DNA of 64,000 nucleotides from Nemertoderma westbladi (lineage: Eukaryota > Animalia > Xenacoelomorpha), in the NCBI GenBank assembly GCA_032718475.1, contig JAUCBJ010007762.1, positions 1 through 64,000 on the forward strand. The letters are read 5' to 3'. The translations under genes were made by a program, and so were the position numbers. Below the pieces are notes generated by a model. That model was not told where the DNA came from. It saw only the letters and a list, made by a program, of their open reading frames with translations, and did not search any database. Positions 4,181-47,580 of the stretch are shown here, in pieces; position 1 is the first letter of the stretch, and each line of letters opens with the position of its first letter.

Positions 4181-4345
4181 GCAGCAAAAAAAATTTCCTC
4201 AAAAGGTAGAAAATTTACTAATCTAGAATTAGTGAAATTTTTGTGACCAGCAGATAAAGTGGGAAAAAGTTATTAAAGTTGAAAGTTACCCCACTAAATT
4301 TTTACGCCTGCAGCAGCATTCCGGGTCGTGTTATAGTAGGTCATG

Positions 4346-10300: not shown

Positions 10301-13300
10301 GTGTTTCTACAGAGACCCAAATCCAAGCTATCGATGATACAGTACAGAGACCCAGATCCAAGCTATCGATGATACAGTTAACAACTTACTTGTGTTTCTA
10401 CAGAGACCCAAATCCAAGCTATCGATGATACAGCTAACAACTTACTTGTGTTTCTACAGAGTCCCAGATCGAAGCTATCGATGATACAGCTAACAACTTA
10501 CTTGTGTTTCTACAGAGACCCAGATCCAAGCTACCGATGATACAGTTAACTACTTACTTGTGTTTCTACAGAGTCCCAGATCCAAGCTATCGATGATACA
10601 GTTAACAACTTACTTGTGTTTCTACAGAGACCCAAATCCAAGCTATCGATGATACAGTTAACAACTTACTTGTGTTTCTACAGAGTCCCAGATCCAAGCT
10701 ATCGATGATACAGTTAACAACTTACTTGTGTTTCTACAGAGTCCCAGATCCAAGCTATCGATGATACCGTTAACAACTTACTTGTGTATCTACAGAGACC
10801 CAAATCCAAGCTATCGATGATACAGTTAACAACTTACTTGTGTTTCTACAGAGACCCAAATCCAAGCTATCGATGATACAGTTAACAACTTACTTGTGTT
10901 TCTACAGAGTCCCAGATCCAAGCTATCGATGATACAGTTAACAACTTACTTGTGTTTCTACAGAGTCCCAGATCCAAGCTATCGATGATACTGTTAACAA
11001 CTTACTTGTGTTTCTACAGAGACCCAAATCCAAGCTATCGATGATACAGTTAACAACTTACTTGTGTTTCTACAGAGACCCAGATCCAAGCTATCGATGA
11101 TACAGTTAACAACTTACTTGTGTTTCTACAGAGACCCAGATCCAAGCTATTGATGATACAGTTAACAACTTACTTGTGTTTCTACAGAGTCCCAGATCCA
11201 AGCTATCGATGATACAGTTAACAACTTACTTGTGTTTCTACAGAGACCCAAATCCAAGCTATCGATGATACAGTTAACAACTTACTTGTGTTTCTACAGA
11301 GTCCCAGATCCAAGCTATCGATGATACAGTTAACAACTTACTTGTGTTTCTACAGAGACCCAAATCCAAGCTATCGATGATACAGTTAACAACTTACTTG
11401 TGTTTCTACAGAGACCCAAATCCAAGCTATCGATGATACAGTACAGAGACCCAGATCCAAGCTATCGATGATACAGTTAACAACTTACTTGTGTTTCTAC
11501 AGAGACCCAAATCCAAGCTATCGATGATACAGTACAGAGACCCAGACCCAAGCTATCGATGATACAGTTAACAACTTACTTGTGTTTCTACAGAGACCCA
11601 GATCCAAGCTATCGATGATACAGTTAACAACTTACTTGTGTTTCTACAGAGACCCAAATCCAAGCTATCGATGATACAGTACAGAGACCCAGACCCAAGC
11701 TATCGATGATAGGGTTAACAACTTACTTGTGTTTCTACAGAGACCCAAATCCAAGCTATCGATGATACAGTTAACAACTTACTTGTGTTTCTACAGAGTC
11801 CCAGACCCAAGCTATCGATGATACAGTTAACAACTTACTTGTGTTTCTACAGAGACCCAAATCCAAGCTATCGATGATACAGTACAGAGACCCAGACCCA
11901 AGCTATCGATGATAGGGTTAACAACTTACTTGTGTTTCTACAGAGACCCAAATCCAAGCTATCGATGATACAGTTAACAACTTACTTGTGTTTCTACAGA
12001 GTCCCAGATCCAAGCTATCGATGATACAGTTAACAACTTACTTGTGTTTCTACAGAGTCCCAGATCCAAGCTATCGATGATACAGTTAACAACTTACTTG
12101 TGTTTCTACAGAGTCCCAGATCCAAGCTATCGATGATACAGTTAACAACTTACTTGTGTTTCTACAGAGACCCAAATCCAAGCTATCGATGATACAGTTA
12201 ACAACTTACTTGTGTTTCTACAGAGACCCAAATCCAAGCTATCGATGATATAGTTAACAACTTACTTGTGTTTCTACAGAGACCCAAATCCAAGCTATCG
12301 ATGATACAGTTAACAACTTACTTGTGTTTCTACAGAGACCCAGATCCAAGCTATCGATGATACAGTTAACAACTTACTTGTGTTTCTACAGAGTCCCAGA
12401 TCCAAGCTATCGATGATACAGTTAACTACTTACTTGTGTTTCTACAGAGACCCAAATCCAAGCTATCGATGATACAGTTAACAACTTACTTGTGTTTCTA
12501 CAGAGACCCAGATCCAAGCTATCGATGATACAGTTAACAACTTGGATCTGGGTCTCTGTAGAAACACAAGTTAACAACTTACTTGTGTTTCTACATAGAC
12601 CCAAATCCAAGCTATCGATGATACAGTTAACAACTTACTTGTGTTTTTACAGAGACCCAGATCCAAGCTATCGATGATACAGTACAGAGACCCAGACCCA
12701 AGCTATCGATGATACAGTACAGAGACCCAAATCCAAGCTATCGATGATACAGTACAGAGACCCAGACCCAAGCTATCGATGATACAGTTAACAACTTACT
12801 TGTGTTTCTACAGAGTCCCAGATCCAAGCTATCGATGATACAGTTAACAACTTACTTGTGTTTCTACAGAGTCCCAGATCCAAGCTATCGATGATACAGT
12901 TAACAACTTACTTGTGTTTCTACAGAGACCCAAATCCAAGCTATCGATGATACAGTTAACAACTTACTTGTGTTTCTACAGAGACCCAGATCCAAGCTAT
13001 CGATGATACAGTTAACAACTTGGATCTGGGTCTCTGTAGAAACACAAGTTAACAACTTACTTGTGTTTCTACATAGACCCAAATCCAAGCTATCGATGAT
13101 ACAGTTAACAACTTACTTGTGTTTTTACAGAGACCCAGATCCAAGCTATCGATGATACAGTACAGAGACCCAGACCCAAGCTATCGATGATACAGTACAG
13201 AGACCCAGATCCAAGCTATCGATGATACAGTACAGAGACCCAGACCCAAGCTATCGATGATACAGTTAACAACTTAATTGTGTTTCTACATAGACCCAGA

Positions 13301-16300
13301 TCCAAGCTATCGATGATACAGTTAACAACTTACTTGTGTTTCTACAGAGACCCAGATCCAAGCTATCGATGATACAGTTAACAACTTACTTGTGTTTCTA
13401 CAGAGACCCAAATCCAAGCTATCGATGATACAGTACAGAGACCCAGACCCAAGCTATCGATGATACAGTTAACAACTTACTTGTGTTTCTACAGAGTCCC
13501 AGATCCAAGCTATCAATGATACAGTTAACAACTTACTTGTGTTTCTACAGAGACCCAAATCCAAGCTATCGATGATACAGTTAACAACTTACTTGTGTTT
13601 CTACAGAGACCCAGATCCAAGCTATCGATGATACAGTTAACAACTTGGATCTGGGTCTCTGTAGAAACACAAGTTAACAACTTACTTGTGTTTCTACATA
13701 GACCCAAATCCAAGCTATCGATGATACAGTTAACAACTTACTTGTGTTTTTACAGAGACCCAGATCCAAGCTATCGATGATACAGTACAGAGACCCAGAC
13801 CCAAGCTATCGATGATACAGTACAGAGACCCAGATCCAAGCTATCGATGATACAGTACAGAGACCCAGACCCAAGCTATCGATGATACAGTTAACAACTT
13901 AATTGTGTTTCTACATAGACCCAGATCCAAGCTATCGATGATACAGTTAACAACTTACTTGTGTTTCTACAGAGACCCAGATCCAAGCTATCGATGATAC
14001 AGTTAACAACTTACTTGTGTTTCTACAGAGACCCAAATCCAAGCTATCGATGATACAGTACAGAGACCCAGACCCAAGCTATCGATGATACAGTTAACAA
14101 CTTACTTGTGTTTCTACAGAGTCCCAGATCCAAGCTATCGATGATACAGTTAACAACTTACTTGTGTTTCTACAGAGACCCAAATCCAAGCTATCGATGA
14201 TACAGTTAACAACTTACTTGTGTTTCTACAGAGACCCAGATCCAAGCTATCGATGATACAGTTAACAACTTGGATCTGGGTCTCTGTAGAAACACAAGTT
14301 AACAACTTACTTGTGTTTCTACATAGACCCAAATCCAAGCTATCGATGATACAGTTAACAACTTACTTGTGTTTTTACAGAGACCCAGATCCAAGCTATC
14401 GATGATACAGTACAGAGACCCAGACCCAAGCTATCGATGATACAGTACAGAGACCCAGATCCAAGCTATCGATGATACAGTACAGAGACCCAGACCCAAG
14501 CTATCGATGATACAGTTAACAACTTAATTGTGTTTCTACATAGACCCAGATCCAAGCTATCGATGATACAGTTAACAACTTACTTGTGTTTCTACAGAGA
14601 CCCAGATCCAAGCTATCGATGATACAGTTAACAACTTACTTGTGTTTCTACAGAGACCCAAATCCAAGCTATCGATGATACAGTACAGAGACCCAGACCC
14701 AAGCTATCGATGATACAGTTAACAACTTACTTGTGTTTCTACAGAGTCCCAGATCCAAGCTATCGATGATACAGTTAACAACTTACTTGTGTTTCTACAG
14801 AGACCCAAATCCAAGCTATCGATGATACAGTTAACAACTTACTTGTGTTTCTACAGAGACCCAGATCCAAGCTATCGATGATACAGTTAACAACTTGGAT
14901 CTGGGTCTCTGTAGAAACACAAGTTAACAACTTACTTGTGTTTCTACATAGACCCAAATCCAAGCTATCGATGATACAGTTAACAACTTACTTGTGTTTT
15001 TACAGAGACCCAGATCCAAGCTATCGATGATACAGTACAGAGACCCAGACCCAAGCTATCGATGATACAGTACAGAGACCCAGATCCAAGCTATCGATGA
15101 TACAGTACAGAGACCCAGACCCAAGCTATCGATGATACAGTTAACAACTTAATTGTGTTTCTACATAGACCCAGATCCAAGCTATCGATGATACAGTTAA
15201 CAACTTACTTGTGTTTCTACAGAGACCCAGATCCAAGCTATCGATGATACAGTTAACAACTTACTTGTGTTTCTACAGAGACCCAAATCCAAGCTATCGA
15301 TGATACAGTACAGAGACCCAGACCCAAGCTATCGATGATACAGTTAACAACTTACTTGTGTTTCTACAGAGTCCCAGATCCAAGCTATCGATGATACAGT
15401 TAACAACTTACTTGTGTTTCTACAGAGTCCCAGATCCAAGCTATCGATGATACAGTTAACAACTTGGATCTGGGTCTCTGTAGAAACACAAGTTAACAAC
15501 TTACTTGTGTTTCTACATAGACCCAAATCCAAGCTATCGATGATACAGTTAACAACTTACTTGTGTTTTTACAGAGACCCAGATCCAAGCTATCGATGAT
15601 ACAGTTAACAACTTACTTGTGTTTCTACAGAGTCCCAGATCTAAGCTATCGATGATACAGTTAACAACTTACTTGTGTTTCTACAGAGTCCCAGACCCAA
15701 GCTATCGATGATACAGTTAACAACTGACTTGTGTTTCTACAGAGACCCAAATCCAAGCTATCGATGATACAGTTAACAACTTACTTGTGTTTCTACAGAG
15801 ACCCAGATCCAAGCTGTCGATGATACCGTTAACAACTTACTTGTGTTTCTACAGAGACCCAAATACAAGCTATCGATGATACAGTACAGAGACCCAGACC
15901 CAAGCTATCGATGATAGGGTTAACAACTTACTTGTGTTTCTACAGAGACCCAAATCCAAGCTATCGATGATACAGTTAACAACTTACTTGTGTTTCTACA
16001 GAGTCCCAGACCCAAGCTATCGATGATACAGTTAACGACTTACTTGTGTTTCTACAGAGACCCAAATCCAAGCTATCGATGATACAGTACAGAGACCCAG
16101 ACCCAAGCTATCGATGATAGGGTTAACAACTTACTTGTGTTTCTACAGAGACCCAAATCCAAGCTATCGATGATACAGTTAACAACTTACTTGTGTTTCT
16201 ACAGAGTCCCAGATCCAAGCTATCGATGATACAGTTAACAACTTACTTGTGTTTCTACAGAGACCCAAATCCAAGCTATCGATGATAGGGTTAACAACTT

Positions 16301-19300
16301 ACTTGTGTTTCTACAGAGACCCAAATCCAAGCTATCGATGATACAGTTAACAACTTACTTGTGTTTCTACAGAGTCCCAGATCCAAGCTATCGATGATAC
16401 AGTTAACAACTTACTTGTGTTTCTACAGAGTCCCAGATCCAAGCTATCAATGATACAGTTAACAACTTACTTGTGTTTCTACAGAGACCCAAATCCAAGC
16501 TATCGATGATACAGTACAGAGACCCAGACCCAAGCTATCGATGATATAGTTAACAACTTAATTGTGTTTCTACATAGACCCAGATCCAAGCTATAGATGA
16601 TACAGTTAACAACTTACTTGTGTTTCTACAGAGACCCAGATCCAAGCTATCGATGATACAGTTAACAACTTACTTGTGTTTCTACAGAGACCCAGATCCA
16701 AGCTATCGATGATACAGTTAACAACTTACTTGTGTTTCTACAGAGTCCCAGATCCAAGCTATCAATGATACAGTTAACAACTTACTTGTGTTTCTACAGA
16801 GACCCAAATCCAAGCTATCGATGATACAGTACAGAGACCCAGACCCAAGCTATCGATGATATAGTTAACAACTTAATTGTGTTTCTACATAGACCCAGAT
16901 CCAAGCTATAGATGATACAGTTAACAACTTACTTGTGTTTCTACAGAGACCCAAATCCAAGCTATCGATGATACAGTACAGAGACCCAAATCCAAGCTAC
17001 CGATGATACAGTTAACAACTTACTTGTATTTCTACAGAGACCCAAATCCAAGCTATCGATGATACAGTTAACAACTTACTTGTGTTTCTACAGAGACCCA
17101 AATCCAAGCTATCGATGATACAGTACAGAGACCCAGACCCAAGCTATCGATGATACAGTTAACAACTTACTTGTGTTTCTACAGAGACCCAAATCCAAGC
17201 TATCGATGATAGGGTTAACAACTTACTTGTGTTTCTACAGAGACCCAAATCCAAGCTATCGATGATACAGTTAACAACTTACTTGTGTTTCTACAGAGTC
17301 CCAGATCCAAGCTATCGATGATACAGTTAACAACTTACTTGTGTTTCTACAGAGTCCCAGATCCAAGCTATCAATGATACAGTTAACAACTTACTTGTGT
17401 TTCTACAGAGACCCAAATCCAAGCTATCGATGATACAGTACAGAGACCCAGACCCAAGCTATCGATGATATAGTTAACAACTTAATTGTGTTTCTACATA
17501 GACCCAGATCCAAGCTATAGATGATACAGTTAACAACTTACTTGTGTTTCTACAGAGACCCAGATCCAAGCTATCGATGATACAGTTAACAACTTACTTG
17601 TGTTTCTACAGAGACCCAGATCCAAGCTATCGATGATACAGTTAACAACTTACTTGTGTTTCTACAGAGTCCCAGATCCAAGCTATCAATGATACAGTTA
17701 ACAACTTACTTGTGTTTCTACAGAGACCCAAATCCAAGCTATCGATGATACAGTACAGAGACCCAGACCCAAGCTATCGATGATATAGTTAACAACTTAA
17801 TTGTGTTTCTACATAGACCCAGATCCAAGCTATAGATGATACAGTTAACAACTTACTTGTGTTTCTACAGAGACCCAAATCCAAGCTATCGATGATACAG
17901 TACAGAGACCCAAATCCAAGCTACCGATGATACAGTTAACAACTTACTTGTATTTCTACAGAGACCCAAATCCAAGCTATCGATGATACAGTTAACAACT
18001 TACTTGTGTTTCTACAGAGACCCAAATCCAAGCTATCGATGATACAGTACAGAGACCCAGACCCAAGCTATCGATGATACAGTTAACAACTTAATTGTGT
18101 TTCTACATAGACCCAGATCCAAGCTATCGATGATACAGTTAACAACTTACTTGTGTTTCTACAGAGACCCAGATCCAAGCTATCGATGATACAGTTAACA
18201 ACTTACTTGTGTTTCTACAGAGACCCAAATCCAAGCTATCGATGATACAGTTAACAACTTACTTGTGTTTCTACAGAGACCCAGACCCAAGCTATCGATG
18301 ATACAGTTAACAACTTACTTGTGTTTCTACAGAGACCCAGATCCAAGCTATCAATGATACAGTTAACAACTTACTTGTGTTTCTACATAGACCCAGATCC
18401 AAGCTATCGATGATACAGTTAACAACTTACTTGTGTTTCTACAGAGACCCAAATCCAAGCTATCGATGATACAGTTAACAACTTACTTGTGTTTCTACAG
18501 AGACCCAGATCCAAGCTATCGATGATACAGTTAACAACTTGGATCTGGGTCTCTGTAGAAACACAAGTTAACAACTTACTTGTGTTTCTACATAGACCCA
18601 AATCCAAGCTATCGATGATACAGTTAACAACTTACTTGTGTTTTTACAGAGACCCAGATCCAAGCTATCGATGATACAGTTAACAACTTACTTGTGTTTC
18701 TACAGAGACCCAGATCCAAGCTATCGATGATACAGTTAACTACTTACTTGTGTTTCTACATAGACCCAGATCCAAGCTATCGATGATACAGTTAACAACT
18801 TACTTGTGTTTCTACAGAGTCCCAGATCCAAGCTATCGATGATACAGTTAACAACTTACTTGTGTTTCTACAGAGACCCAGATCCAAGCTATCGATGATA
18901 CAGTTAACAACTTACTTGTGTTTCTACAGAGTCCCAGATCCAAGCTATCGATGATACAGTTAACAACTTACTTGTGTTTCTACAGAGACCCAGACCCAAG
19001 CTATCGATGATACAGTTAACAACTTACTTGTGTTTCTACAGAGACCCAGATCCAAGCTATCGATGATACAGTTAACAACTTACTTGTGTTTCTACATAGA
19101 CCCAGATCCAAGCTATCGATGATACAGTTAACAACTTACTTGTGTTTTTACAGAGACCCAGATCCAAGCTATCGATGATACAGTTAACAACTTACTTGTG
19201 TTTCTACATAGACCCAGATCCAAGCTATCGATGATACAGTTAACAACTTACTTGTGTTTCTACAGAGACCCAGATCCAAGCTATCGATGATACAGTTAAC

Positions 19301-22300
19301 AACTTACTTGTGTTTCTACATAGACCCAGATCCAAGCTATCGATGATACAGTTAACAACTTACTTGTGTTTTTACAGAGACCCAGATCCAAGCTATCGAT
19401 GATACAGTTAACAACTTACTTGTGTTTTTACAGAGACCCAGATCCAAGCTATCGATGATACAGTTAACAACTTACTTGTGTTTCTACATAGACCCAAATC
19501 CAAGCTATCGATGATACAGTTAACAACTTACTTGTGTTTCTACAGAGACCCAGACCCAAGCTATCGATGATACAGTTAACAACTTACTTGTGTTTCTACA
19601 GAGACCCAGATCCAAGCTATCAATGATACAGTTAACAACTTACTTGTGTTTCTACATAGACCCAGATCCAAGCTATCGATGATACAGTTAACAACTTACT
19701 TGTGTTTCTACAGAGACCCAAATCCAAGCTATCGATGATACAGTTAACAACTTACTTGTGTTTCTACAGAGACCCAGATCCAAGCTATCGATGATACAGT
19801 TAACAACTTGGATCTGGGTCTCTGTAGAAACACAAGTTAACAACTTACTTGTGTTTCTACATAGACCCAAATCCAAGCTATCGATGATACAGTTAACAAC
19901 TTACTTGTGTTTTTACAGAGACCCAGATCCAAGCTATCGATGATACAGTTAACAACTTACTTGTGTTTCTACAGAGACCCAGATCCAAGCTATCGATGAT
20001 ACAGTTAACTACTTACTTGTGTTTCTACATAGACCCAGATCCAAGCTATCGATGATACAGTTAACAACTTACTTGTGTTTCTACATAGACCCAGATCCAA
20101 GCTATCGATGATACAGTTAACAACTTACTTGTGTTTTTACAGAGACCCAGATCCAAGCTATCGATGATACAGTTAACAACTTACTTGTGTTTCTACATAG
20201 ACCCAGATCCAAGCTATCGATGATACAGTTAACAACTTACTTGTGTTTCTACAGAGACCCAGATCCAAGCTATCGATGATACAGTTAACAACTTACTTGT
20301 GTTTCTACATAGACCCAGATCCAAGCTATCGATGATACAGTTAACAACTTACTTGTGTTTTTACAGAGACCCAGATCCAAGCTATCGATGATACAGTTAA
20401 CAACTTACTTGTGTTTTTACAGAGACCCAGATCCAAGCTATCGATGATACAGTTAACAACTTACTTGTGTTTCTACATAGACCCAGATCCAAGCTATCGA
20501 TGATACAGTTAACAACTTACTTGTGTTTCTACAGAGACCCAGATCCAAACTATCGATGATACAGTTAACAACTTACTTGTGTTTCTACATAGACCCAGAT
20601 CCAAGCTATTGATGATACAGTTAACAACTTACTTGTGTTTCTACAGAGACCCAGATCCAAGCCATCGATGATACAGTTAACAACTTACTTGTGTTTCTAC
20701 AGAGGCCCAAATCCAAGCTATCGATGATACAGTTAACAACTTACTTGTGTTTCTACAGAGACCCAGATCCAAGCTATCGATGATACAGTTAACAACTTAC
20801 TTGTGTTTCTACAGAGACCCAAATCCAAGCTATCGATGATACAGTTAACAACTTACTTGTGTTTCTACAGAGACCCAGACCCAAGCTATCGATGATACAG
20901 TTAACAACTTACTTGTGTTTCTACAGAGACCCAGATCCAAGCTATCAATGATACAGTTAACAACTTACTTGTGTTTCTACATAGACCCAGATCCAAGCTA
21001 TCGATGATACAGTTAACAACTTACTTGTGTTTCTACAGAGACCCAAATCCAAGCTATCGATGATACAGTTAACAACTTACTTGTGTTTCTACAGAGACCC
21101 AGATCCAAGCTATCGATGATACAGTTAACAACTTGGATCTGGGTCTCTGTAGAAACACAAGTTAACAACTTACTTGTGTTTCTACATAGACCCAAATCCA
21201 AGCTATCGATGATACAGTTAACAACTTACTTGTGTTTTTACAGAGACCCAGATCCAAGCTATCGATGATACAGTTAACAACTTACTTGTGTTTCTACAGA
21301 GACCCAGATCCAAGCTATCGATGATACAGTTAACTACTTACTTGTGTTTCTACATAGACCCAGATCCAAGCTATCGATGATACAGTTAACAACTTACTTG
21401 TGTTTCTACAGAGTCCCAGATCCAAGCTATCGATGATACAGTTAACAACTTACTTGTGTTTCTACAGAGACCCAGATCCAAGCTATTGATGATACAGTTA
21501 ACAACTTACTTGTGTTTCTACAGAGTCCCAGATCCAAGCTATCGATGATACAGTTAACAACTTACTTGTGTTTCTACAGAGACCCAGACCCAAGCTATCG
21601 ATGATACAGTTAACAACTTACTTGTGTTTCTACAGAGACCCAGATCCAAGCTATCGATGATACAGTTAACAACTTACTTGTGTTTCTACATAGACCCAGA
21701 TCCAAGCTATCGATGATACAGTTAACAACTTACTTGTGTTTTTACAGAGACCCAGATCCAAGCTATCGATGATACAGTTAACAACTTACTTGTGTTTCTA
21801 CATAGACCCAGATCCAAGCTATCGATGATACAGTTAACAACTTACTTGTGTTTCTACAGAGACCCAGATCCAAACTATCGATGATACAGTTAACAACTTA
21901 CTTGTGTTTCTACAGAGACCCAGATCCAAGCTATCGATGATACAGTTAACAACTTACTTGTGTTTCTACAGAGACCCAGATCCAAGCTATCGATGATACA
22001 GTTAACAACTTACTTGTGTTTCTACATAGACCCAGATCCAAGCTATCGATGATACAGTTAACAACTTACTTGTGTTTTTACAGAGACCCAGATCCAAGCT
22101 ATCGATGATACAGTTAACAACTTACTTGTGTTTTTACAGAGACCCAGATCCAAGCTATCGATGATACAGTTAACAACTTACTTGTGTTTCTACATAGACC
22201 CAGATCCAAGCTATCGATGATACAGTTAACAACTTACTTGTGTTTCTACAGAGACCCAGATCCAAACTATCGATAATACAGTTAACAACTTACTTGTGTT

Positions 22301-23927
22301 TCTACATAGACCCAGATCCAAGCTATTGATGATACAGTTAACAACTTACTTGTGTTTCTACAGAGACCCAGATCCAAGCCATCGATGATACAGTTAACAA
22401 CTTACTTGTGTTTCTACAGAGGCCCAAATCCAAGCTATCGATGATACAGTTAACAACTTACTTGTGTTTCTACAGAGACCCAGATCCAAGCTATCGATGA
22501 TACAGTTAACAACTTACTTGTGTTTCTACAGAGACCCAAATCCAAGCTATCGATGATACAGTTAACAATTTACTTGTGTTTCTACAGAGTCCCAGATCCA
22601 AGCTATCAATGATACACTTAACAACTTACTTGTGTTTCTACAGAGTCCCAGATCCAAGCTATCGATGATACAGTTAACAACTTACTTGTGTTTCTACAGA
22701 GACCCAAATCCAAGCTATCGATGATACAGTTAACAACTTATTTGTGTTTCTACAGAGTCCCAGATCCAAGCTATCGATGATATAGTTAACAACTTACTTG
22801 TGTTTCTTCAGAGTCCCAGATCCAAGCTATTGATGATACAGTTATCAACTTACTTGTGTTTCTACAGAGTCCCAGATCCAAGCTATCAATGATACAGTTA
22901 ACAACTTACTTGTGTTTCTACAGAGTCCCAGATCCAAGCTATCAATGATACAGTTAACAACTTACTTGTGTTTCTACAGAGACCCAAATCCAAGCTATCG
23001 ATGATACAGTACAGAGACCCAGACCCAAGCTATCGATGATACAGTTAACAACTTACTTGTGTTTCTACAGAGACCCAAATCCAAGCTATCGATGATACAG
23101 TACAGAGACCCAGACCCAAGCTATCGATGATATAGTTAACAACTTAATTGTGTTTCTACATAGACCCAGATCCAAGCTATCGATGATACAGTTAACAACT
23201 TACTTGTGTTTCTACAGAGACCCAGATCCAAGCTATCGATGATACAGTTAACAACTTACTTGTGTTTCTACAGAAACCCAAATCCAAGCTATCGATGATA
23301 CAGTTAACAACTTACTTGTGTTTCTACAGAGTCCCAGATCCAAGCTATCGATGATACAGTTAACAACTTACTTGTGTTTCTACAGAGTCCCAGATCCAAG
23401 CTATCGATGATACAGTTAACAACTTACTTGTGTTTCTACAGAGACCCAAATCCAAGCTATCGATGATACAGATAACAACTTACTTGTGTTTCTACAGAGA
23501 CCCAGATCCAAGCTATCGATGATACAGTTAACAACTTACTTGTGTTTCTACAGAGTCCCAGATCCAAGCTATCGATGATACAGATAACAACTTACTTGTG
23601 TTTCTACAGAGACCCAGATCCAAGCTATCGATGATACAGTTAACAACTTACTTGTGTTTCTACAGAGACCCAGATCCAAGCTATCGATGATACAGTTAAC
23701 AACTTACTTGTGTTTCTACAGAGACCCAGATCCAAGCTATCGATGATACAGTTAACAACTTACTTGTGTTTCTACAGAGACCCAGATCCAAGCTATCGAT
23801 GATACAGTTAACAACTTACTTGTGTTTCTACAGAGACCCAGATCCAAGCTATCGATGATACAGTTAACAACTTACTTGTGTTTCTACAGAGTCCCAGATC
23901 CAAGCTATCGATGATACAGATAACAAC
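4346..23927. repeat. Satellite DNA array, 56-bp monomer (AGAGACCCAGATCCAAGCTATCGATGATACAGTTAACAACTTACTTGTGTTTCTAC), with 35-bp deletion monomers and inversion-bearing monomers
   Basis: Head-to-tail tandem repeat over ~19.6 kb (roughly 350 units), no unique spacers, and recurrent SNP variants that define higher-order repeats. Confidence 0.98.
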
Positions 23928-23934
23928 AGATAAC

Positions 23935-25061
23935 AATACATATGGGACTCCCACAAATCGATACTGCATGGGGGCACCAACCGAACCCTCACAGAGATAA
24001 GGAGGACCTTTTGGGTCAAACAACTAAGGAGGAGGGTTAAAGCGGTAGTGGGGCAGTGCCAGACCTGCCGACGGGCGAAGAAGGAGCGAGCCATACAGGA
24101 GATGGCGCCACTACCGGCGAGTAGGGTAAGACAGCACGACCCGCCATTTACGCATTGCGGTGTGGACATGTTCGGGCCGATAAAGATCAAGGTGATGCGA
24201 CACACGGAGAAACGCTACGGTATTATCTTCGTATGCAACAATACACGGGCGGTAGGGATAGAACTCGCCCAAGATGCAACCGCATCAGCATTCATTAACG
24301 CCTTAGAAAGGTTTAGGGACCGCAAAGGTGGGACGATCGCAGTGATATACAGCGACAACGGCACCAACTTTGTGGGCGCAGAGAGTGAGATGGCGGAGGC
24401 CTTGGACATTTTGGAGGGAGAGGAAGTCAGGGCGGCCATGAGGAGACGACAAGTGAAGTGGGAAAGAAGGACGCCGTATGCACCACATACATTAGGATGC
24501 GTCGAGAGACTAGTGGGCAGTTCAAAACGTCTAATGACGAAGCTAATGAACACCCACATGGTCACTGAGGACGTCTTACAAACAGTACTTGCGAAGTGCG
24601 AGGGGATCATTAATAGCAGACCGCTATATCCAGAGAATGATGACCCTGAGTCATTGGACGTGTTAACGCCTAGCCATTTCCTAATGGAAAGGCCAGCGAC
24701 CATCGATATGCGGGGTGTAGATCCAGACGACATACACTCCCGCCAAAGTTGGAAAGTAGCTAAAGCAATTAGCGCAGAGTATTGGAGGAGGTGGGTAGAG
24801 GAATACCTACCCACACTCCATAAGCGAAGCAAGTGGAGGAAGCCGAACAGGGAGTTAAAAGTAGGAGATCTCGTAATCGTTACGGATGATACTATCATCA
24901 ACAACCAGTGGCGGTTGGCGAGAGTTGTAGGCACCTACTCCGACGAGGACGGAAGAGTCCGATCGGTAGAAGTGCGGATAGGTGGAAAGATAGGTGCGAA
25001 AGACAGAAAAACCTACAGGAGAGCAGTAGGTAAATGCTGTCTTCTAGAAGGGGCACCTTAA
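23935..25061 (+). CDS. BEL/Pao integrase (C-terminal part of pol, truncated at the satellite)
   Basis: The frame extends upstream of ORF 24048 to give the HHCC finger (HKSILHGG...FW...CQTC). DDE core: GVDMFGP, YSDNGTNFVGA, GCVERLV. Also INSRPL, LTPSHFL and a BEL-type C-terminal tail (YWRRWVEEYLPTLHKRSKW...W.LARV...DGRVRSV). Confidence 0.95.
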
Positions 25062-25169
25062 ATTGGAGTTAGAGTGGAGTTTAGTTGTCCAAGTTTTGGA
25101 CTGAGGGGGGTGGGATTGAGGGCGAGACGCCCTTCCCACACAAATAAAAATAAAATAAAATAAAAATAA

Positions 25170-25915
25170 TAGTTAGTTAGTTAGTAGGTACGTAGTACCT
25201 AGAGTTAGTTAGTTAGTAGGTACGTAGTACCTAGAGTTAGTTAGTTAGTAGGTACGTAGTACCTAGAGTTAGTTAGTTAGTAGGTACGTAGTACCTAGAG
25301 TTAGTTAGTTAGTTAGAGGGTACGTAGTACCGTTAGTTAGAGTTAGAGTTAGAGGGTACGTAGTACCGTTAGTTAGAGTTAGAGTTAGAGGGTATGTAGT
25401 ACCGATAGTTAGAGAGTTAGAGGGTACGTAGTACCGTTAGTTAGAGTTAGAGTTAGAGGGTACGTAGTACCGATAGTTAGAGAGTTAGAGGGTACGTAGT
25501 ACCAATAGTTAGTTAGAGTTAGAGGGTACGTAGTACCGATAGTTAGAGAGTTAGAGGGTACGTAGTACCGTTAGTTAGAGTTACAGTTAGAGGGTACGTA
25601 GTACCGATAGTTAGAGAGTTAGTAGGTACGTAGTACCTAGTTAGAGTTAGAGTTAGAGGGTACGTAGTACCAATAGTTAGTTAGAGTTAGTAGGTACGTA
25701 GTACCTAGTTAGAGTTAGAGTTAGAGGGTACGTAGTACCGATAGTTAGAGAGTTAGTAGGTACGTAGTACCTAGTTAGAGTTAGAGTTAGAGGGTACGTA
25801 GTACCAATAGTTAGTTAGAGTTAGTAGGTACGTAGTACCTAGTTAGAGTTAGAGTTAGTAGGTACGTGGTACCTAGTTAGAGTTAGAGTTAGGGGGTACG
25901 TAGTACCATTAGTTA
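25170..25915. repeat. Irregular ~26-35-bp tandem repeat with palindromic core (TA)GGTACGTAGTACC(TA) and TTAG/TTAGAG linkers
   Basis: More than 20 visible cores between the pol stop and the extra ORF. Confidence 0.95.
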
Positions 25916-26405
25916 GAGAGAGAGAGTGAGAGGTAAAAGGGGTAAATAGGATATAGATATTAGTTAGCAGTAAGTAGAGTTAGTAGCGAGAGGGGGGCAT
26001 ATGAGTACAGCTGGATAAATCGTATGGCCACACGACGCATACTGCTGTACTGCATGGGCCCACAGAGTAGGCCAGAATATGGATCAGAGAATAGAATAAA
26101 CCCATAGGCAGTAGTAGGTAGTAGGACACTAGAATCAAAGCAAACAAACAAATAAATAGAATAGGGCTAAAATCGTAAAATAGTGGCAACACAAGGAAAG
26201 TCGTTCTAGAACATAATAAAAGTAACGGACGGAAATTGTAAATTAGGCTGATTTACTAGCTCCGAAATTAATTAGGTTAAATTTAGCTTGAAAGGCGCAA
26301 CTAAGTAGAAAGTAGGCCATTATCGAACCGTACGAAACATCTTAAATACTTCACTCATCTGTATTGCGCCTTGGTAAGGCACCACCCTGCAGGTGAGCGA
26401 GTGTA

Positions 26406-28949
26406 GTGTTCGGAATGGCGAGTAAGTTGATCAGGAAGAGGAAGGCGGAGTCAGGAGGAAAAGAAATACTGGTGGATTTCACCGAAAGACACCCGGAAGA
26501 GAAGACGAGAGGATACTACGAGAAGTTGGAAAGGGGTCACGCGGCACGAGCGCTGCAGGATCACTTCCGGGAGGCCCACGAACAGCGGTTGGTCGGGACC
26601 TACGGGACCCCGTCACTAGACAACGCGATCTTCCAACACTTCCACTACGTGGTGAAAGGGGACGAGGCGAAGTTCGGGATTCCGAAGTATCCGAGGGAAT
26701 CGCCGAGGAAGGACTGGAAAAGATTCATAGAGTCCGTCAACAGAGGAGGATATATGATCCTAGATGACGAGGGAACCGTGGAAGACGAAGCGGGTTCGAG
26801 ACGAGGAACGGCAGGGTCGGCCAGGACCATACTCCTACATTTGGCCGCGCCAAATGGGGACATCTTCTTATTCGACCTAGGGACGTATGGGAAGAAGGAC
26901 GGGCCGAAATTAGACCGATTGCCGAAAGCGGTACAAGTATTAGTAAGAGAGAAGTCGACGACGAAAGTGGGATCGGCGATTCGCGAGGACGCGGAGAGGA
27001 TCATCGGTCCGGACGCCACCAACCTCCTGGATATGCAGAAAGTCTTTATGGCTATGACGGCACCGGATGGATTGGGGGTAGTCGAAAACACAGGCCAATG
27101 CGGGGCTGTGGCGATGGGCCAATTATTGGGGCTCGTATGCCACAAACCGATGGACTGGGGAAAGTTTAGGGAAGAATACGGGGCAGAACTAGCGAACTCG
27201 CTGAAGTGGGGAGCGAGACCGGGAAAGCAGGAGGTATATCAGTTTCGCAGAGGAGCGATAAAGGTATATCAGAAGCGATATATCCTGCAGGAGGACTGGA
27301 TGATGATAAGTTTGCTTAACTTATTCATGACCGTAGTTATCGAAAGGGAACCAGGGGCATTTCTGTTATCGGGATCACCCCTAAGCTACAGGAGAGCCTT
27401 TAAGACGGCCTTTGACGGTCTGGTAGACCACCCGGGGCTGAAGGGCGAGTCGGTGTACTACAACAGCCGACATCTGGTAGACGGGGAGACAGATACACCG
27501 TATCAGAGATGGGAGCAGCTAGAGGCGGACAGACGAGAAGCAAAGCGACTGGAAGAAGTCGCTAGACGGGAGAGGATAGAAGCAGAGGAGAGGGAAGAGG
27601 AGGCCAGGGCACAGAGTTACGGCTTCGAGGAACAGGCGGGCCTAGACGAACTTCATTGGACTTCGTCAGGGAGTTCGGGGGAGTCTCTAGGGCGAGAATT
27701 GGGATGGACGGTGGGATCGCCGAAACAGTCGACGTCGGGGTTGCAAACGATGCCCATACCAGCGGGCGCCGAGGGCGACCAACCGCCAAGGAAGCTAAGG
27801 GAGCTAGAGGGATGGAGAGCTACGGGCGAGAGCCAAGGCGGGAAGGGACATAGTGGATCCGTCGGGATACCGGGATTGGAGACACTACCAGAAGAGGAGG
27901 ACGACGACGACGAGTTCGGAGAGATGCCGCCCATCGAGAGGATAGGCCACTCGGACACGGACTGGGTTGGCGGAAGGGTGGTGACGGCCAGTGGGGCGAG
28001 GGCCTTCTGGAACAGATCCGGCAAGCGGACCTGGGTGCACGAGGAGCCGGCGATGGATTTCGCGGGGAGCACCATCAGGTTGGGCGAGCAACCGGGAACG
28101 GCACCACGGATAGTATTCGGGGAGACGATGCCCGAGAGGGGCGGAGAGATCGACGTAAACAGGGAGAGCAACGTAGAGAAGTTCGCCTACCAGCGACTCC
28201 ATAGACCGCGGAGATCGCTTGGGACGAAAGACGAGGTGGGACGGGAGACATTGGTACTCGGCTGCGACTACTGTGGGAGACAGACCCATCGGGAAAGCAG
28301 CTGCCTATACCGGTTCCAAAAGGGAACCTTTTGTCTCTACTGCAGAGAACCAAGTCACAGGATGGGGGCGTGTCCACGGTTGCATAACCGATGTCCAAAG
28401 TGCCACTTTCGGGGACACTACGGGCGCGAGTGCGACTGGATGAGCGACGAGGAAAAGTTCACAAGATTCGAGGAGTGGGCCGACGTCGGGGCCATGACGC
28501 GCCAGCGCATGAAGGCCCAAGAGTTCAAGTGGGGTTTCTTCCTCATAAACCAGGAGACCCACATGGAAATCATAAAGCGAAGGTTACCGTTTACCTATCA
28601 AGAGGTAGCAACGGCGGCATCGTTCGCCGGAGTTATGAACACGCAACGGTACCTGGACAGGTGGACACCAGAGAACCGGAGGGAGTTTAGGGATTTCTTG
28701 GCGGAACACGTACCAAAGGCAATGAAAATGATCCTATGGGACGCCACACGAGGGAGACAACCAGGCCATTCTGAGGGGCCACCGGCGAAGCGGTATCGGG
28801 CATTAATAACACCAGCGCCCAAGGAGCCAACGACCGGGATCAGCAAGGAAGTGGCGGCGAAGGTCCGGAAGCAGAAAGCGGATGATGCCAGAGGAACGGT
28901 GATAACCAAGAAACGGGCCAGGGAAGAGGACGTGAGGAGGAACAGATAA
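26406..28949 (+). CDS. Retrotransposon accessory ORF: putative WRN/RNase D-like DEDD 3'-5' exonuclease, acidic/low-complexity linker, three CCHC zinc knuckles
   Basis: Uninterrupted 847 codons (first ATG at 26415). ExoI-like ILDDEG; LLHLAAPNGDIFLFDL; LPKAVQVLV...KVGSAIRED (ExoII-like); LLDMQ; WG.RP...QKRYILQED (ExoIII-like). Knuckles CDYCGRQTHRESSC, CLYCREPSHRMGAC, CPKCHFRGHYGREC. Confidence 0.75.
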   Translation: MFGMASKLIRKRKAESGGKEILVDFTERHPEEKTRGYYEKLERGHAARALQDHFREAHEQRLVGTYGTPSLDNAIFQHFHYVVKGDEAKFGIPKYPRESPRKDWKRFIESVNRGGYMILDDEGTVEDEAGSRRGTAGSARTILLHLAAPNGDIFLFDLGTYGKKDGPKLDRLPKAVQVLVREKSTTKVGSAIREDAERIIGPDATNLLDMQKVFMAMTAPDGLGVVENTGQCGAVAMGQLLGLVCHKPMDWGKFREEYGAELANSLKWGARPGKQEVYQFRRGAIKVYQKRYILQEDWMMISLLNLFMTVVIEREPGAFLLSGSPLSYRRAFKTAFDGLVDHPGLKGESVYYNSRHLVDGETDTPYQRWEQLEADRREAKRLEEVARRERIEAEEREEEARAQSYGFEEQAGLDELHWTSSGSSGESLGRELGWTVGSPKQSTSGLQTMPIPAGAEGDQPPRKLRELEGWRATGESQGGKGHSGSVGIPGLETLPEEEDDDDEFGEMPPIERIGHSDTDWVGGRVVTASGARAFWNRSGKRTWVHEEPAMDFAGSTIRLGEQPGTAPRIVFGETMPERGGEIDVNRESNVEKFAYQRLHRPRRSLGTKDEVGRETLVLGCDYCGRQTHRESSCLYRFQKGTFCLYCREPSHRMGACPRLHNRCPKCHFRGHYGRECDWMSDEEKFTRFEEWADVGAMTRQRMKAQEFKWGFFLINQETHMEIIKRRLPFTYQEVATAASFAGVMNTQRYLDRWTPENRREFRDFLAEHVPKAMKMILWDATRGRQPGHSEGPPAKRYRALITPAPKEPTTGISKEVAAKVRKQKADDARGTVITKKRAREEDVRRNR

Positions 28950-29615: not shown

Positions 29616-29653
29616 ATGCTATCTTCTTACCGGGAAGATAGCATGGGGGGGAG
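29616..29653 (+). other. Stem-loop plus polypurine tract of element 1
   Basis: ATGCTATCTTC-7 nt-GAAGATAGCAT perfect 11-bp stem, then GGGGGGGAG|TG. Confidence 0.85.
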
Positions 29654-30194: not shown

Positions 30195-30270
30195 TTAACT
30201 AGTCTGGGACTTCAAGCCACACATGAACAACTAAGCTGAGTGGTTAACTAGTCTGGGACTTCGAGCAGCA
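30195..30270. repeat. About 1.5 copies of a 49-bp satellite (TTAACTAGTCTGGGACTTCAAGCCACACATGAACAACTAAGCTGAGTGG)
   Basis: Same unit as the array at 63737-64000. Confidence 0.9.
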
Positions 30271-30278: not shown

Positions 30279-31157
30279 TGCTCAACATCCAATGACGTCA
30301 TTGCCTCTACATCTGAAATAAAAACAGATTCCGATCACTCATCACCGAGTCTCACAGACACATCTGTTACGCCACCGCCTCTCGCGATAGTCCAAATGGA
30401 CGATGAATTCCTCCAATCGATGCACGAGTGCGCTCGAGCGTTGCTAAGCTACAGAATCAAAGGTGATTGGAGCGAAGTTCGAACGGCAGGGCCGTTAAAG
30501 CGTTTCTCGAAGGACGTTGAGTTGTTATTGGCGATGGACACGAACAGCGAGCAGTACTGGGACTTGTTACGGCGGTACAGCGCCATATACGGGAGGTTCG
30601 ATAGCAAAAGGAAGCCGGGTCGGGTCGGCAGCTCAGCAAACACGAGGCAACCATCAACGAGGCCGCCGCCATCCTCTGCCACATCAACCCCATACTCATC
30701 GCGAAGAGGGATAGTCTGTTCCCGTTGGCTAGACAGGTGATCCGTAACGCGGGTTACCAGTACAGCAGCGGTAGATCGAGGGCGCAAGCGCACGCGGATC
30801 AAACTGGAAGTTGGGTTGGATTCGAGCGAGTACGGAGGCGGAGAGACGACCGAGAGAGTTGAGGAAACCGGGGAGATGTCGAAAGAAGATATAGAGCGAC
30901 GTCTGGAAGAAATAGGGGAGAGAATCGCGGAACTCTCCAGCAAACAGATGGAGTTCGAGGCCCAGATGAAAACGGCGAGAATTAACAACGATATCGCGAG
31001 TTTATATAAACTGCAATGCGAAATCGAGAACCTGAAACCGGTGATTGGTAAACTAATGGTTGAACAATCGCGTCTCGAGTTGGATAACATCGACACAGAG
31101 GGGAACGATTCCTTGTTGCATGTGAAACTAATCTCATCAAACGAACTGGAATTGTAA
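30279..31157 (+). pseudogene. Unidentified intronless ORF with C-terminal coiled coil; one in-frame TGA, probably 5'-truncated
   Basis: ORFs 30396-30740 and 30816-31157 share a frame and are separated only by TGA at 30738-30740. The frame is open back to ~30279. GC-rich relative to the downstream flank; AATAAA at ~31192. Confidence 0.5.
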
Positions 31158-32372: not shown

Positions 32373-32657
32373 CGAGTGATTCCCCGAACTTATATATTTT
32401 ATTCTAAGTTTATTAGGAGGTGGAGGAGGGGGTGGTAACCTAAACGGAATTTTAATTTACTATGAGATCAATGCCCCGTTTATAAGTGAGCATATAATTA
32501 ATGCTGTGAACCCTCGGTAACTTCCTGATGTACAGTTCAGTATAAAACATTAGGAATTAGGATTCCCCTGCTCTAAGAGCCCAAGGGACTGGCATATAAC
32601 AGTACGGCTACTGGCTCTACTGCTGCCTGGTATAAATGGATGGATAAATGGGCCTGG

Positions 32658-32970
32658 ATGCTATCTTCTCACCGGGAAGATAGCATGGGGGGAGTGTTAG
32701 CGTATTCAATTCCGCTAGCCAGCCCCACAAAGTAGGCTTTAAGCAATATTGGGAGCACGAGGTTGATTACCAATCAACGGTGTCACCCCAATAAACGGGG
32801 ACAACAGGCCCCAGGGGAACACACAAAGGGGGTCAGAGGTTACACCTCCGGGAGAGAGAGAATAACAGCAGTGGAGGGGAAACACTCCCAGAGAGATGGG
32901 AGGCGAGAAGTGAGTTATTAGCCAATGGGGGGAAAGCATCGACTGAGTAATGTAATGAGGCCGTGCAATG
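32658..32970 (+). mobile_element. Stem-loop/PPT and partial LTR related to the element 1 LTR
   Basis: gatgctatcttctcaccgggaagatagcatggggggag|TGTTAGCGTATTCAAT; blocks shared with 29654-29920 include taagcaatattgggagc, gcatcga.tgagta and ccgtgcaat. Confidence 0.85.
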
Positions 32971-32979
32971 AGTGCACGG

Positions 32980-35700
32980 TAAACTGGGAAAGAAGCACCC
33001 GTTCAGACACCAAAACCACTGATAAGACAGCAACCAAGAAACGATACGCTTGTCACCAACTATGAAGTGTTCCTCGGATCACTCTGGCTCAGACACGAAG
33101 GGATGTGAAAACATATATTATGGTGATGTGAACCCCAGAGGTAAGAAAAAATATAGCAGTCAGGGCAAGCCGTATAGGATCATACCTCCCCCCAAGTCTA
33201 ATAGTTCCCCCAAGAAAGCATATACGGATAACCATAAGATGGGCACAACTTGTCACGACATGCTTCTTGTGTCTTAGACCGGGACATGTGAGACGTAAGT
33301 GCCAACTAATAGACACGAAAACGTGTCCGGCGTGTCAAGGCTCCCATTACCCCTTGCTACACCTAGACCAGGCCCCGAAGGGAGAAATAGACCAACGTGT
33401 ACACTTCACTGATTATGAGACAGACTCACCCGATGAAGGACCGGATGAATTCTACCCTGGAGAGTTTACAACGAATGCTGTAACCATGTTAGTGTGTATG
33501 AAGCCTTTACCTATGAGGAACCCGTATTGGAAGATTGTTTCAAAATTGAGAACAATCCCAACACCCAGTCATTTCAGGATGCAGGAGTCAGAGAGTTTTA
33601 TTATCTATGTGAATAAATGAGACTTAAAAGAGTTAAAAGAAAAGTCAGAGAGTTTCCGGTGCTCCAAGTCAGGCTCCACGCGGGAAGTAATAGTGTTGTG
33701 GTAAATGCCTTAATGGACACCAGGAGTACGGGCACCTTCATAGACGCAGAGTTAGCCGAATCATTGTTCGCCAAGGAACAAGGCATTACACACTATTTAA
33801 CATTATTCCAGGACCCTAGATTATTTATTATCCTGGTGCTAATTTTTACTAGTTACGATTTTAGATATGGCATTTTTTAGCTGGATTAAAAATTATTATT
33901 ATTACATGAAACTAACATTTGTTCTTTGAAGGTCACATAGCCGCATGCATACTGTACATCAAAGCGCTTTTCTCTGTGTCACTAATGCTGTATTCTTCAT
34001 TTTGAAGGACGAAGGTAATAACTCCTCTTGATGATGATGAAGTTTATCTGTTGTTTATATCAGTTCCGATTACTATGGAGCCTCCAGCGGTCGTTCATAC
34101 CTTTTTATCTTGATCATCTCGGCGTTTTCTGCCCAATGTCGCGCACATACTCCAATATTTGTCATTACTTTCTCTATTCTATTTGGTATATTCTCCAACC
34201 AATGATGTTGGTCTATTAAGTTTTTTGGGAACAGGTAAACTGTTGCCTTCTCTTCTTGCGAGGCATAATTTCCTTTACAGCCTGCTACAGAGCAATTGCG
34301 TGGCATCCCTAATGTGATGATTTGCAGAGATTATCATATTATCATATCATGTACTGTATGTTCGAACTAATTGACTGATAAATTATGAGAGATCTACTCA
34401 CCTAATGCTACTTATAGATCATCTCTATTTAAATGTTAAAAATAATATAATCTAAAAATATTTCAATAATAAAAAAAACGTTTTAAAAAAAGTATCAACA
34501 ACTACAGTAGCTAGTATGTACAGTACATGATCTTTTAACTTGATGAAACAAGTTCTAGAATAAAAAGTTAAGATTAAAACCCAGGCGTCCTAAACTATTT
34601 TATTGTTAAATTTGCTAGAAATTTCCACTGAGTTTCTGTTTACTATGTAATAGGCGATACTATTGTATGTGTGTGTACCCATAAACGAATTTTTGCTGCT
34701 ATATCTAGTTTTTGTATTAGTAATTTTAGTAATAGTATTGTAGTATAATTTTCGCCAATACTGTAGTATTGCAACTGCATCTCTTTTATTTAGCTACTCT
34801 ATATCTATAAACTAAGAAACTAAGATAATGAATACCGGCCTCTAATAAAATTAACACTGTATGCGAGCATCGCGTCCTGAATATATACTATGTTCTAGAA
34901 GTCCTTGCTAACATTATCTGGGATAATGAAACGTTGGCAGTCCACGATTGAAACAAAGTAATATAAGGCATCCCTGCGATGTCCACACCGCAAGATACCA
35001 GTGGCTGGGATAAGGTGTCTAACATTATAATGGTTGACATCCAGAATTTTGCCAAAAGTCAGGCAAAGACTGGGATGATGACGCCCTCGTAAGTAATCAT
35101 AATATTCCCCGTTTCACCCCACACTACCCAGGCCTACTGATGTTGATAGGCCAAAATGTACCAGAGGCCTTAGAGATTTTGGAGAAACGACCCAGACATC
35201 CAGAACCAATGTTAGCCTACGCCTGTTGGACAATATTGGGATGTTACTGTACCGGGTCCTCCCAGAAGACGCTGTTGGAGCGAAAAGGACCAACAAATAC
35301 AGACACCGACACTTGCAACTTAGTGACCCACCTATGCAATGAAACTATAGCGACGGAAGATGATGTCTTAACTACCCCTGACCAAACCGACAGCGGTTGT
35401 GACGCTCCCCTGTCCTCAGACCAAGACTGTTTCTTTACTAGGTACAGTGAACCCAATATCGTGACCCCGATGACCGACCAAGAATTGCTTACCACCCATT
35501 TGGAGTTGTGCAATTTGCTACACGCACCTCCCGACCTGCAGCAAGAACTGAGCGAGCTCGAGGAAGCCAGGCGTCTTCTAAAACTATAAGAACATACAGT
35601 TACTTGGATGCAGCAGGAGATACTCGAGCAAAACTCCAATGACAAGGCATTGTCAGTGGAAGAGGAGCGAGCAGATACAGAGAACCACCACCAGGTTTTT
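32980..35700 (+). pseudogene. Degraded BEL/Pao gag-protease region, interrupted by a THAP element
   Basis: Gag knuckles CLRPGHVRRKC...CPACQGSHYPLLH; protease ALMDTRSTGTFID; after the insertion LSGIMKRWQST and LIGQNVPEALEILEKRP, colinear with the 51747-53786 protein; stops and frameshifts present. Confidence 0.85.
33807..34908 (-). mobile_element. Non-autonomous ~1.1-kb THAP-domain DNA transposon (P-like)
   Basis: Flanked by direct repeat TAACATTAT (33798-33806 and 34909-34917). Imperfect terminal inverted repeats CCAGGAC-CCTAGA / TCTAGAAGTCCTTG. THAP ORF 34306-34073 (MPRNCSVAGC...YLFP...W...VCARHW). Removing it restores the BEL frame HYLTLSGIM. Confidence 0.8.
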
Positions 35701-47382: not shown

Positions 47383-47429
47383 ATAACAGTTATTGTCTTT
47401 ATTGCAGTAAGCAATAAAGTTGAAAGTAC

Positions 47430-47580
47430 CGGTTGACCGGTAAACCTGAACCGGTACTTCTGTAGGTCAGTAGGCCCAACTGCCAGAACCGGTACTGCTG
47501 TAGGTCCGTAGGTCCAACTGCCAGAACCGGTACTTCCGTAGGTCCGTAGGCCCAACTGTCCTAACCGGTACTTCCAGTAT
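47430..47580. repeat. Short tandem repeats in the leader (AACCGGTACT...GTAGGTCCGTAGGCCCAACTGCCAG)
   Basis: Three to four imperfect ~40-bp units. Confidence 0.8.

Follow-up and report, generated by a model that had tools for sequence, protein, structure and literature searches.

BEL/Pao retrotransposons have been described with env-like genes as their only third genes, and the window analyzed here, a 64,000-nucleotide stretch of the Nemertoderma westbladi genome, raises the question of what a long open reading frame (ORF3) in the env position of such an element encodes, whether it belongs to the element, and what it may contribute. Env is the only third gene named in the Belpaoviridae profile (PMC8742986) and in the accessible part of PMC3118150, where an exonuclease is not mentioned; nor is one mentioned in PMC8556966 or PMC8220671. 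No exonuclease ORF in a BEL/Pao element was found in a literature consisting chiefly of non-subscription papers, with Repbase and supplements outside it. ORF3, which joins a predicted exonuclease domain to zinc knuckles, typifies a class of genes that is widespread yet missed by Pfam and annotation.

The Locus of ORF3

The integrase upstream of ORF3 belongs to a 3′ remnant of a BEL/Pao pol gene (23934–25061, forward strand; 375 codons), which matches Integrase_H2C2, the rve core, and DUF5641 in a Pfam scan, the DUF5641 match (E = 5e-25) identifying a BEL-type integrase. A spacer of 1.35 kb, containing tandem repeats with 32–34 bp units (25169–25918, forward strand), separates pol from ORF3. 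Downstream, on the same strand, lie a polypurine tract (PPT; 29645–29653) and a 541-bp 3′ LTR of raised depth (29654–30194), the combination expected of a BEL/Pao element; the LTR is bounded by TG at 29654 and CA at 30194, and a contig of run X6 departs immediately after that CA. The upstream side of the remnant is cut by a 56-bp satellite array that adjoins the integrase at about 23933, which accounts for the lack of gag, reverse transcriptase (RT), and 5′ LTR of this element within the 64-kb window. A preliminary description of this DNA had placed the ORF inside a BEL/Pao element. The identity of the element is confirmed by the DUF5641 integrase here and by the Pao family domain PF05380 in the pol ORFs of relatives, and the order of integrase, ORF3, PPT, and LTR agrees with the placement; but as the element is represented here by its 3′ part alone, the single locus is insufficient, and the placement depends on the copies and relatives considered below.

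The frame is open from 26397 to the stop at 28949. It had been reported as an uninterrupted ORF of 847 codons beginning at 26406, where the frame is indeed open, but position 26406 is a GTG codon and the first ATG, at 26415, yields a protein of 844 aa. A splice acceptor proposed at 26392 is followed by GTGAG, and a splice donor is an equally good reading of that site.

ORF3 Encodes a Predicted DEDDy Exonuclease Joined to Three Zinc Knuckles

The ORF3 protein (26415–28949, forward strand) is predicted to comprise a DEDDy domain, a coiled helix, a disordered linker, a triple-knuckle domain, and a basic tail. The first of the three CX2CX4HX4C knuckles starts at 28263, with the others following at 28332 and 28392 (28263–28433), where they had been noticed before, and together with a conserved helical extension they occupy 28263–28725 on the forward strand. 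In the model predicted from aligned sequences, pLDDT values are 85–96 in the knuckles and mostly 80–93 in the exonuclease core, and a linker of ~200 residues between these confident parts appears disordered; prediction from the single sequence gave a pLDDT of 34 and was unusable. The 19-residue hydropathy of ORF3 peaks at 1.3, which speaks against a membrane anchor, and a hydropathy scan revealed no signal or membrane segment in the window ORF3. No fusion protein appears among the fold matches listed, and ORF3 shows none of the hallmarks of env (signal peptide, membrane anchor, or fusion fold), in agreement with the first reading of this locus.

The N-terminal domain (26706–27347, forward strand) has, according to a family profile and the model, a DEDDy 3′–5′ exonuclease fold of the EXD2/WRN type. 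Its putative catalytic residues are D117 and E119 in the ExoI D-x-E motif (codons at 26763 and 26769), D192 in ExoII (26988), and Y289 and E293 in ExoIII (27279 and 27291), where E293 replaces the last D of YxxxD, a conservative change that is also found in the homologues P0004, P0005, P0008, P0012, and P0035. ExoIII had been regarded as deviant (YILQED) and is indeed not YxxxD, but it reads YxxxE, with E293 aligned to the D of the family; the D-E-D-Y-E set, described earlier as intact, is complete in the sequence. From this intact set, we infer that the window copy may be an active nuclease.

In searches against the PDB, a 34-row family profile matches human EXD2 (E = 4.4e-13), followed by Egalitarian (2e-5), WRN (5e-5), and EXOSC10 (0.19), and a profile restricted to 22 exonuclease domains again matches EXD2 (E = 1.2e-12), the EXD2 profile match spanning ExoI to ExoII. 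Since EXD2 is the best sequence-profile match, the domain probably came from a host gene of the EXD2 type. An Rrp6/EXOSC10-type core is rejected, given an E-value of 4e-13 for EXD2 versus 0.19 for EXOSC10 and the absence of an HRDC domain from the Pfam scans. ORF3 is distinguished from the group of EXD2, WRN-exo, Nibbler (Mut-7), Egalitarian, and EXD1 by the lack of a membrane anchor and by an insertion preceding ExoIII. Foldseek searches with the model rank Trypanosoma brucei RNase D and Nibbler first, the E-values being modest (about 4e-5); the matches listed, including those from a viral library, are DEDD-type exonucleases throughout, among them Egalitarian structures, one of which is bound to an RNA signal of the I-factor retrotransposon. 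The combination of profile search, predicted structure, and Foldseek, which had been proposed as a check, supports a DnaQ/RNase D fold.

The domain is invisible to Pfam and to single-sequence PDB searches, and its detection requires a family profile or a model; among 38 homologues scanned with Pfam, a weak PF01612 match was present in two. In the ESM Atlas, the exonuclease part has clusters with PF01612 in its vicinity (0.94; 34% of members), and the knuckle part remains below 0.9 and serves as a lead only. Two word-indexed homologue searches returned nothing, and another returned eight unnamed proteins. An exhaustive search recovered 72 relatives of ORF3, mainly through the knuckle region; the N-terminal domain also aligns in 32 of them, and the rest are either shorter than 450 aa (34) or longer without a match (6). 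No named member was found in the 20 clusters looked up.

ORF3 Is a Multicopy, Selected Gene in the Host

Contigs of four public runs were compared with the window region, with run X5, guessed to be RNA, left out. The summed depth of X1 and X3 reaches tens of thousands from the integrase through the spacer to ORF3, compared with 22–63 in the flank beyond 30477; ORF3 resembles the integrase in depth, at about a thousand times the flank, a ratio that is not a copy number. No contig in the host runs bridges the integrase and ORF3. Across the whole ORF, 21 of the 26 variants listed are synonymous. Among the best 40 of 100 variants in the exonuclease domain, 34 are synonymous, compared with about 28–32% expected (p about 1e-12; rough dN/dS 0.07–0.08), and none falls in the five catalytic codons; the two variant lists overlap and are not independent. 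No indels occur among the variants listed. ORF3 is multicopy and under purifying selection.

ORF3 Is Co-Inherited with BEL/Pao pol

A motif of the knuckles that 60 of 75 homologues share served as a search pattern; it yielded at least 120 loci in metagenome contigs, with about 300 estimated, and none in viral contigs. Eighty of the 120 loci have flanks, and L081–L120, which have none, are outside the counts of genomic context. A knuckle profile matches 78 of the 80 flanked loci, and the two that failed (L014 and L071) were dropped; the conservation of the knuckles among these loci is partly by construction, as the loci were found with the knuckle pattern.

Among the 33 contigs with at least 4 kb upstream, a BEL-like integrase is found in 30 and the exonuclease in 31, and the order integrase, exonuclease, knuckles is kept on one strand in 28, with no opposite-strand match. 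The exceptions are a long ORF3 that fills its contig (L005), a pol-deleted locus (L022), a decayed locus with no pol match in 10 kb (L012), and two loci with knuckles but no detectable exonuclease (L047 and L059). The pol ORFs scanned contain DUF5641 (14/14) and PF05380 (13/14). Several contigs run through ORF3, PPT, LTR, primer site, and gag, and in L023 two LTRs, 95% alike, flank gag-pol and ORF3. Linkage of BEL pol and ORF3, which had been named as a check, is observed among relatives in 28 of 33 contigs, one contig having two LTRs.

Clustered at 80% identity, the integrases of 37 relatives and the window fall into 32 groups, and at 50% into 11; the window integrase is at most 36% identical to that of any relative and sits, in a quick tree, on a long branch of unsure place. 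Pairwise identities of the ORF3 domains track those of the integrase, with Spearman correlations of 0.86 and 0.81 in a Mantel permutation test (p = 0.001), a congruence that reflects shared descent, not co-evolution. ORF3 is a stable, co-inherited part of a BEL/Pao lineage; the one-off captured host gene considered as the opposite case is at odds with a gene that is multicopy, selected, and common to BEL relatives.

Active, Dead, and Exonuclease-Less Forms

Families that are about 20% identical, the window element included, retain five catalytic positions. Their retention is uneven: D-E-D-[D/E] is kept in 23 of 47 fully aligned exonuclease domains, and an integrase clade of 15 rows, with a support of 99 in a quick tree, has lost the set. 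The dN/dS of the domain is 0.04–0.48 in this dead clade (seven pairs) and 0.06–0.46 in active relatives (six unsaturated pairs). Judged by these residues, in about half of the lineage the exonuclease domain appears to be catalytically dead, yet conserved, a feature absent from the preliminary description.

The position of ORF3 relative to pol also varies: among 38 loci, ORF3 is separate in 24, overlaps pol in another frame in 4, and is open in frame immediately after the pol stop in 10. Members of the dead clade mostly have the in-frame arrangement with a UGA-C pol stop, and two in-frame loci, L029 and L076, keep the catalytic set. The in-frame stop is always TGA, followed by C in 9 of the 10 loci, with following contexts of C, CGG, or CAATTA; these loci are kin, and the counts are not independent events. 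In 12 dead-clade loci, a common stem is present whose arms differ in sequence yet still pair and in which TCGG[A/T] is invariant, and this stem behind the UGA is bulged and carries UCGGA. Folding z-scores downstream of the stops of in-frame loci are mixed (−3.3 to +0.6), and no long-range partner of the UCGGA bulge was found consistently behind ORF3 in these relatives. The in-frame UGA-C stop and the conserved stem suggest that dead-clade ORF3 may be expressed by stop-codon readthrough from pol; the window element lacks this arrangement.

UGA-C in Sindbis virus and CAR-YYA in TMV are known readthrough contexts, and the third ORF (pol-env) of SIRE1 is made by stop suppression, as described in the accessible part of PMC2194720. 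The relatives resemble these systems in having an in-frame pol stop in a readthrough-type context before the third ORF, and differ from them in being BEL/Pao elements with UGA and, additionally, a conserved bulged stem with UCGGA. This candidate readthrough element is a further aspect, in the field of recoding, that can be tested.

Comparison with Known Systems

The ORF3-carrying lineage shares with BEL/Pao elements carrying an env-like ORF the PPT, TG...CA LTRs, and a third gene after pol, and also, as seen in relatives, the gag-pol order and primer-binding site. The closest precedent for the gene itself comes from bdelloid rotifers, in which DEDDy ORF3s have been reported in the Gypsy-type elements Juno and Vesta and DEDDy ORFs in the Penelope-like Athena/Terminon elements (PMC5408684; Rodriguez et al. 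2017); in the accessible part of that report, these ORFs are called recent and not departing from neutrality, with function untested there. The report is repeated in passages of PMC6431247 and PMC5718144, and a passage of PMC6338049 cites the rotifer work in treating a DnaQ-like domain as an LTR accessory. In Juno and Vesta, too, a DEDDy gene takes the place of env after pol and lacks a membrane segment. Here, in contrast, the carrier is BEL/Pao rather than Gypsy, which sets ORF3 apart from the rotifer family as far as the carrier is concerned; a triple CCHC array is fused to the domain, compared with at most a Cys-His-Cys motif in the rotifer ORFs as far as they are described; and ORF3 co-diverges deeply with the integrase, is under strong purifying selection, and includes a conserved dead clade. 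What appears new relative to the literature covered is the BEL/Pao carrier, the triple knuckles, and the clear selection, the DEDDy ORF3s of rotifer Gypsy elements being known already. Cer1, which had been named as a further DEDDy precedent, finds no support as one in the text covered: the accessible part of PMC10309623 contains neither "exonuclease" nor "DEDD", and that of PMC5408684 does not contain Cer1.

T. brucei RNase D (TbRND; 7c4c and 7c45), the top fold match, has a similar layout, a DEDDy domain followed by CCHC zinc fingers. TbRND is a cellular mitochondrial enzyme with four fingers near the nuclease, whereas the three knuckles of ORF3 are about 300 mostly disordered residues away. 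Since the sequence similarity between the ORF3 exonuclease and TbRND is negligible (E = 0.58), the shared architecture is probably convergent.

Possible Functions of ORF3

We favor, at somewhat less than an even chance, the view that ORF3 is a selected accessory gene serving counter-defence against small-RNA silencing or RNA decay. The knuckles would grip RNA, the DEDDy domain would trim RNA 3′ ends, and ORF3 would thereby bind or shorten the small RNAs and decay intermediates that the host directs against the element transcript. RNA binding by the knuckles is proposed by analogy with TbRND, in which the zinc-finger domain binds RNA and enhances cleavage (according to the accessible part of PMC7797062). 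Because the dead clade is still conserved, binding may be the core job and cutting an add-on. DEDDy genes have been captured by unrelated retroelements that replicate by different routes, which makes host silencing the suggested target; their capture by Gypsy and Penelope-like elements (PMC5408684, in its accessible part) points to a benefit independent of the element's replication mode. The window ORF3 would be expressed from a subgenomic or spliced RNA, and in some relatives likely by readthrough of the pol stop.

Several observations count against counter-defence. The catalytic set is kept in fewer than half of the aligned domains, and L047, L059, and the second element of the window have no detectable exonuclease. 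Mature piRNAs are 2′-O-methylated and resist 3′ trimming, which tells against the trimming of small RNAs. A readthrough fusion to Pol would give little, particle-bound protein, which fits a role inside the particle better.

Such an in-particle role, in which ORF3 trims the 3′ ends of element RNA or cDNA or handles RNA–DNA hybrids during reverse transcription, is the leading rival, possible but clearly less probable than counter-defence. The ten in-frame relatives would deliver ORF3 together with Pol, and L029 and L076 would do so with the catalytic set kept; EXD2 acts on DNA, RNA, and hybrids (PMC6648332 and PMC13425236, each in its accessible part), and processing of element RNA 3′ ends has been proposed for the rotifer ORFs in the accessible text of PMC5408684. 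However, the RNase H D-E-D residues are intact in all 12 of 16 relatives' pol ORFs in which a pattern located the domain, and tRNA primer-binding sites are canonical in 7 of 8 among the loci listed, so that a core role in replication is less needed; a large clade retains ORF3 without catalysis, and in the window 1.35 kb separate ORF3 from pol. On the same two grounds, the intact RNase H and the canonical primer sites, two of the functions offered in the preliminary description are weakened, and the ideas of primer creation and RNase H replacement are both lowered.

Slightly less probable again is that ORF3 acts chiefly as an RNA adaptor without catalysis and exports, localizes, or shields unspliced element RNA, in the manner of the dead-DEDD Egalitarian or CERV of Cer1. 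Purifying selection on the dead clade, the Egalitarian structures among the fold matches (one with the I-factor RNA signal), and the precedent of CERV as an LTR-element export protein (PMC10309623, in its accessible part) are in keeping with an adaptor, as is, weakly, the presence of K[KR]x[KR] in 26 of 34 complete ORF3s (median 0.13 per 100 aa, compared with 0.05 in pol). An adaptor, however, leaves the persistence of five catalytic positions among such divergent families unexplained, and the likeness to Egalitarian is limited to the shared fold.

Counter-defence is also preferred to tethering, in which ORF3 as an integrase extension would attach the integration complex to chromatin or an RNA target. 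The in-frame UGA-C junction and the conserved stem would append ORF3 to the integrase in one clade, but ORF3 is separate from pol in 24 of 38 relatives and in the window element, and tethering is improbable. Passive carriage, of a host gene fragment or of a neighboring gene, draws on the truncation of the window copy and the lack of a host-run contig from integrase to ORF3; it is highly improbable and already largely refuted by the integrase-like depth of ORF3 (about a thousand times the flank in X1 and X3, not a copy number), the order kept in 28 of 33 contigs (one with two LTRs), the integrase-congruent distances (Mantel 0.86 and 0.81), and strong selection. Least probable of all is that ORF3 takes over from env in cell-to-cell spread; it has the position but, in the window, neither signal nor membrane segment, a hydropathy of 1.8 being reached in only 4 of 34 complete relatives and a fusion protein being absent from the fold matches listed.

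If ORF3 does suppress small-RNA silencing, it would represent a counter-defence protein encoded by an animal transposon. The more specific picture, in which a deep, unannotated BEL/Pao lineage makes a silencing suppressor of its own against small RNAs from an EXD2-derived nuclease that zinc knuckles direct, and in which one clade has turned this protein into a dead decoy joined to Pol through programmed UGA readthrough governed by an RNA stem not described before, is tentative and on balance rather unlikely. The natural active, dead, and exonuclease-less versions allow a direct test of why retroelements repeatedly capture 3′–5′ exonucleases.

A Second BEL Element in the Window

The window also contains a second, different BEL element (46126–58187, forward strand), with 1261-bp LTRs that are 99.7% alike and a 5-bp target duplication, in which gag and protease are present and RT, RNase H, and integrase are missing. 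Its ORF3 (55798–56847, forward strand) belongs to the same knuckle family (E = 6e-12), and no exonuclease domain was detected in it. This knuckle-only ORF3 sits between the near-identical LTRs.

A candidate readthrough element behind pol

In the dead-exonuclease clade, the relatives whose ORF3 (the third gene behind pol) has lost the catalytic set of its exonuclease though the domain is conserved, a TGA, a stem and TCGG[A/T] follow one another at the end of pol in 12 metagenome-contig loci (L002, L007, L021, L033, L034, L037, L062, L065, L066, L068, L069, and L080). The pol stop is TGA throughout these loci and is followed by C in 11 of them, and ORF3 lies in frame with it in nine. The stem comprises 7–10 bp, differs in sequence between loci, and starts at +7 to +11, while TCGG[A/T] is conserved at +19/+20 behind the stop. 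Stems of at least 8 bp occur behind 11 of the 12 pol stops, versus 7% of other TGAs. This arrangement is a candidate readthrough element of the clade. Three further loci (L029, L076, and L031) carry TGA-C in frame without the stem/TCGG[A/T] element.

Derivatives lacking pol and variant ORF3 proteins

A second BEL element, which is young and non-autonomous, occupies 46126–58187 of the window, with LTRs that are 99.7% alike and a 5-bp target duplication. Reverse transcriptase and RNase H, along with integrase, are all missing, and no TGG primer site is present directly 3' of its 5' LTR; the retained ORF3 is knuckle-only, with an in-frame stop at 55795–55797. At locus L022 (5187–10931), a pol-deleted derivative between LTRs likewise keeps an ORF3 that is broken by a stop.

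ORF3 reaches 920–1590 aa in L005, L015, L043, L051, L047, and L059, where the N-terminal parts are long, of low complexity, and the proteins have no Pfam match; the exonuclease is undetectable in the last two. Among the protein homologues, P0001 has a duplicated knuckle module, and P0059 joins a homeodomain match to the knuckle module.

Repeats and other features around the main element

A satellite array of ~20 kb (4273–23933), with a 56-bp unit, 35-bp variants, and higher-order periods, directly abuts the integrase remnant of the main element. Directly behind its 3' LTR lies a 49-bp repeat unit (30195–30270), which reappears as a short array at 63738–63991, close to the window's end.

Further 3' of this LTR, a NAB-type NCD2 domain match (30279–31157; Pfam E 2e-12) is followed in the same frame, after one stop, by a coiled-coil ORF. 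This region, which sits in flank DNA of low depth, represents either a host gene fragment or a piece of another element. In a third, decayed BEL-like remnant (32657–35589), gag knuckle and protease-region fragments come after a stretch that matches the main element's PPT/LTR start at 83%.
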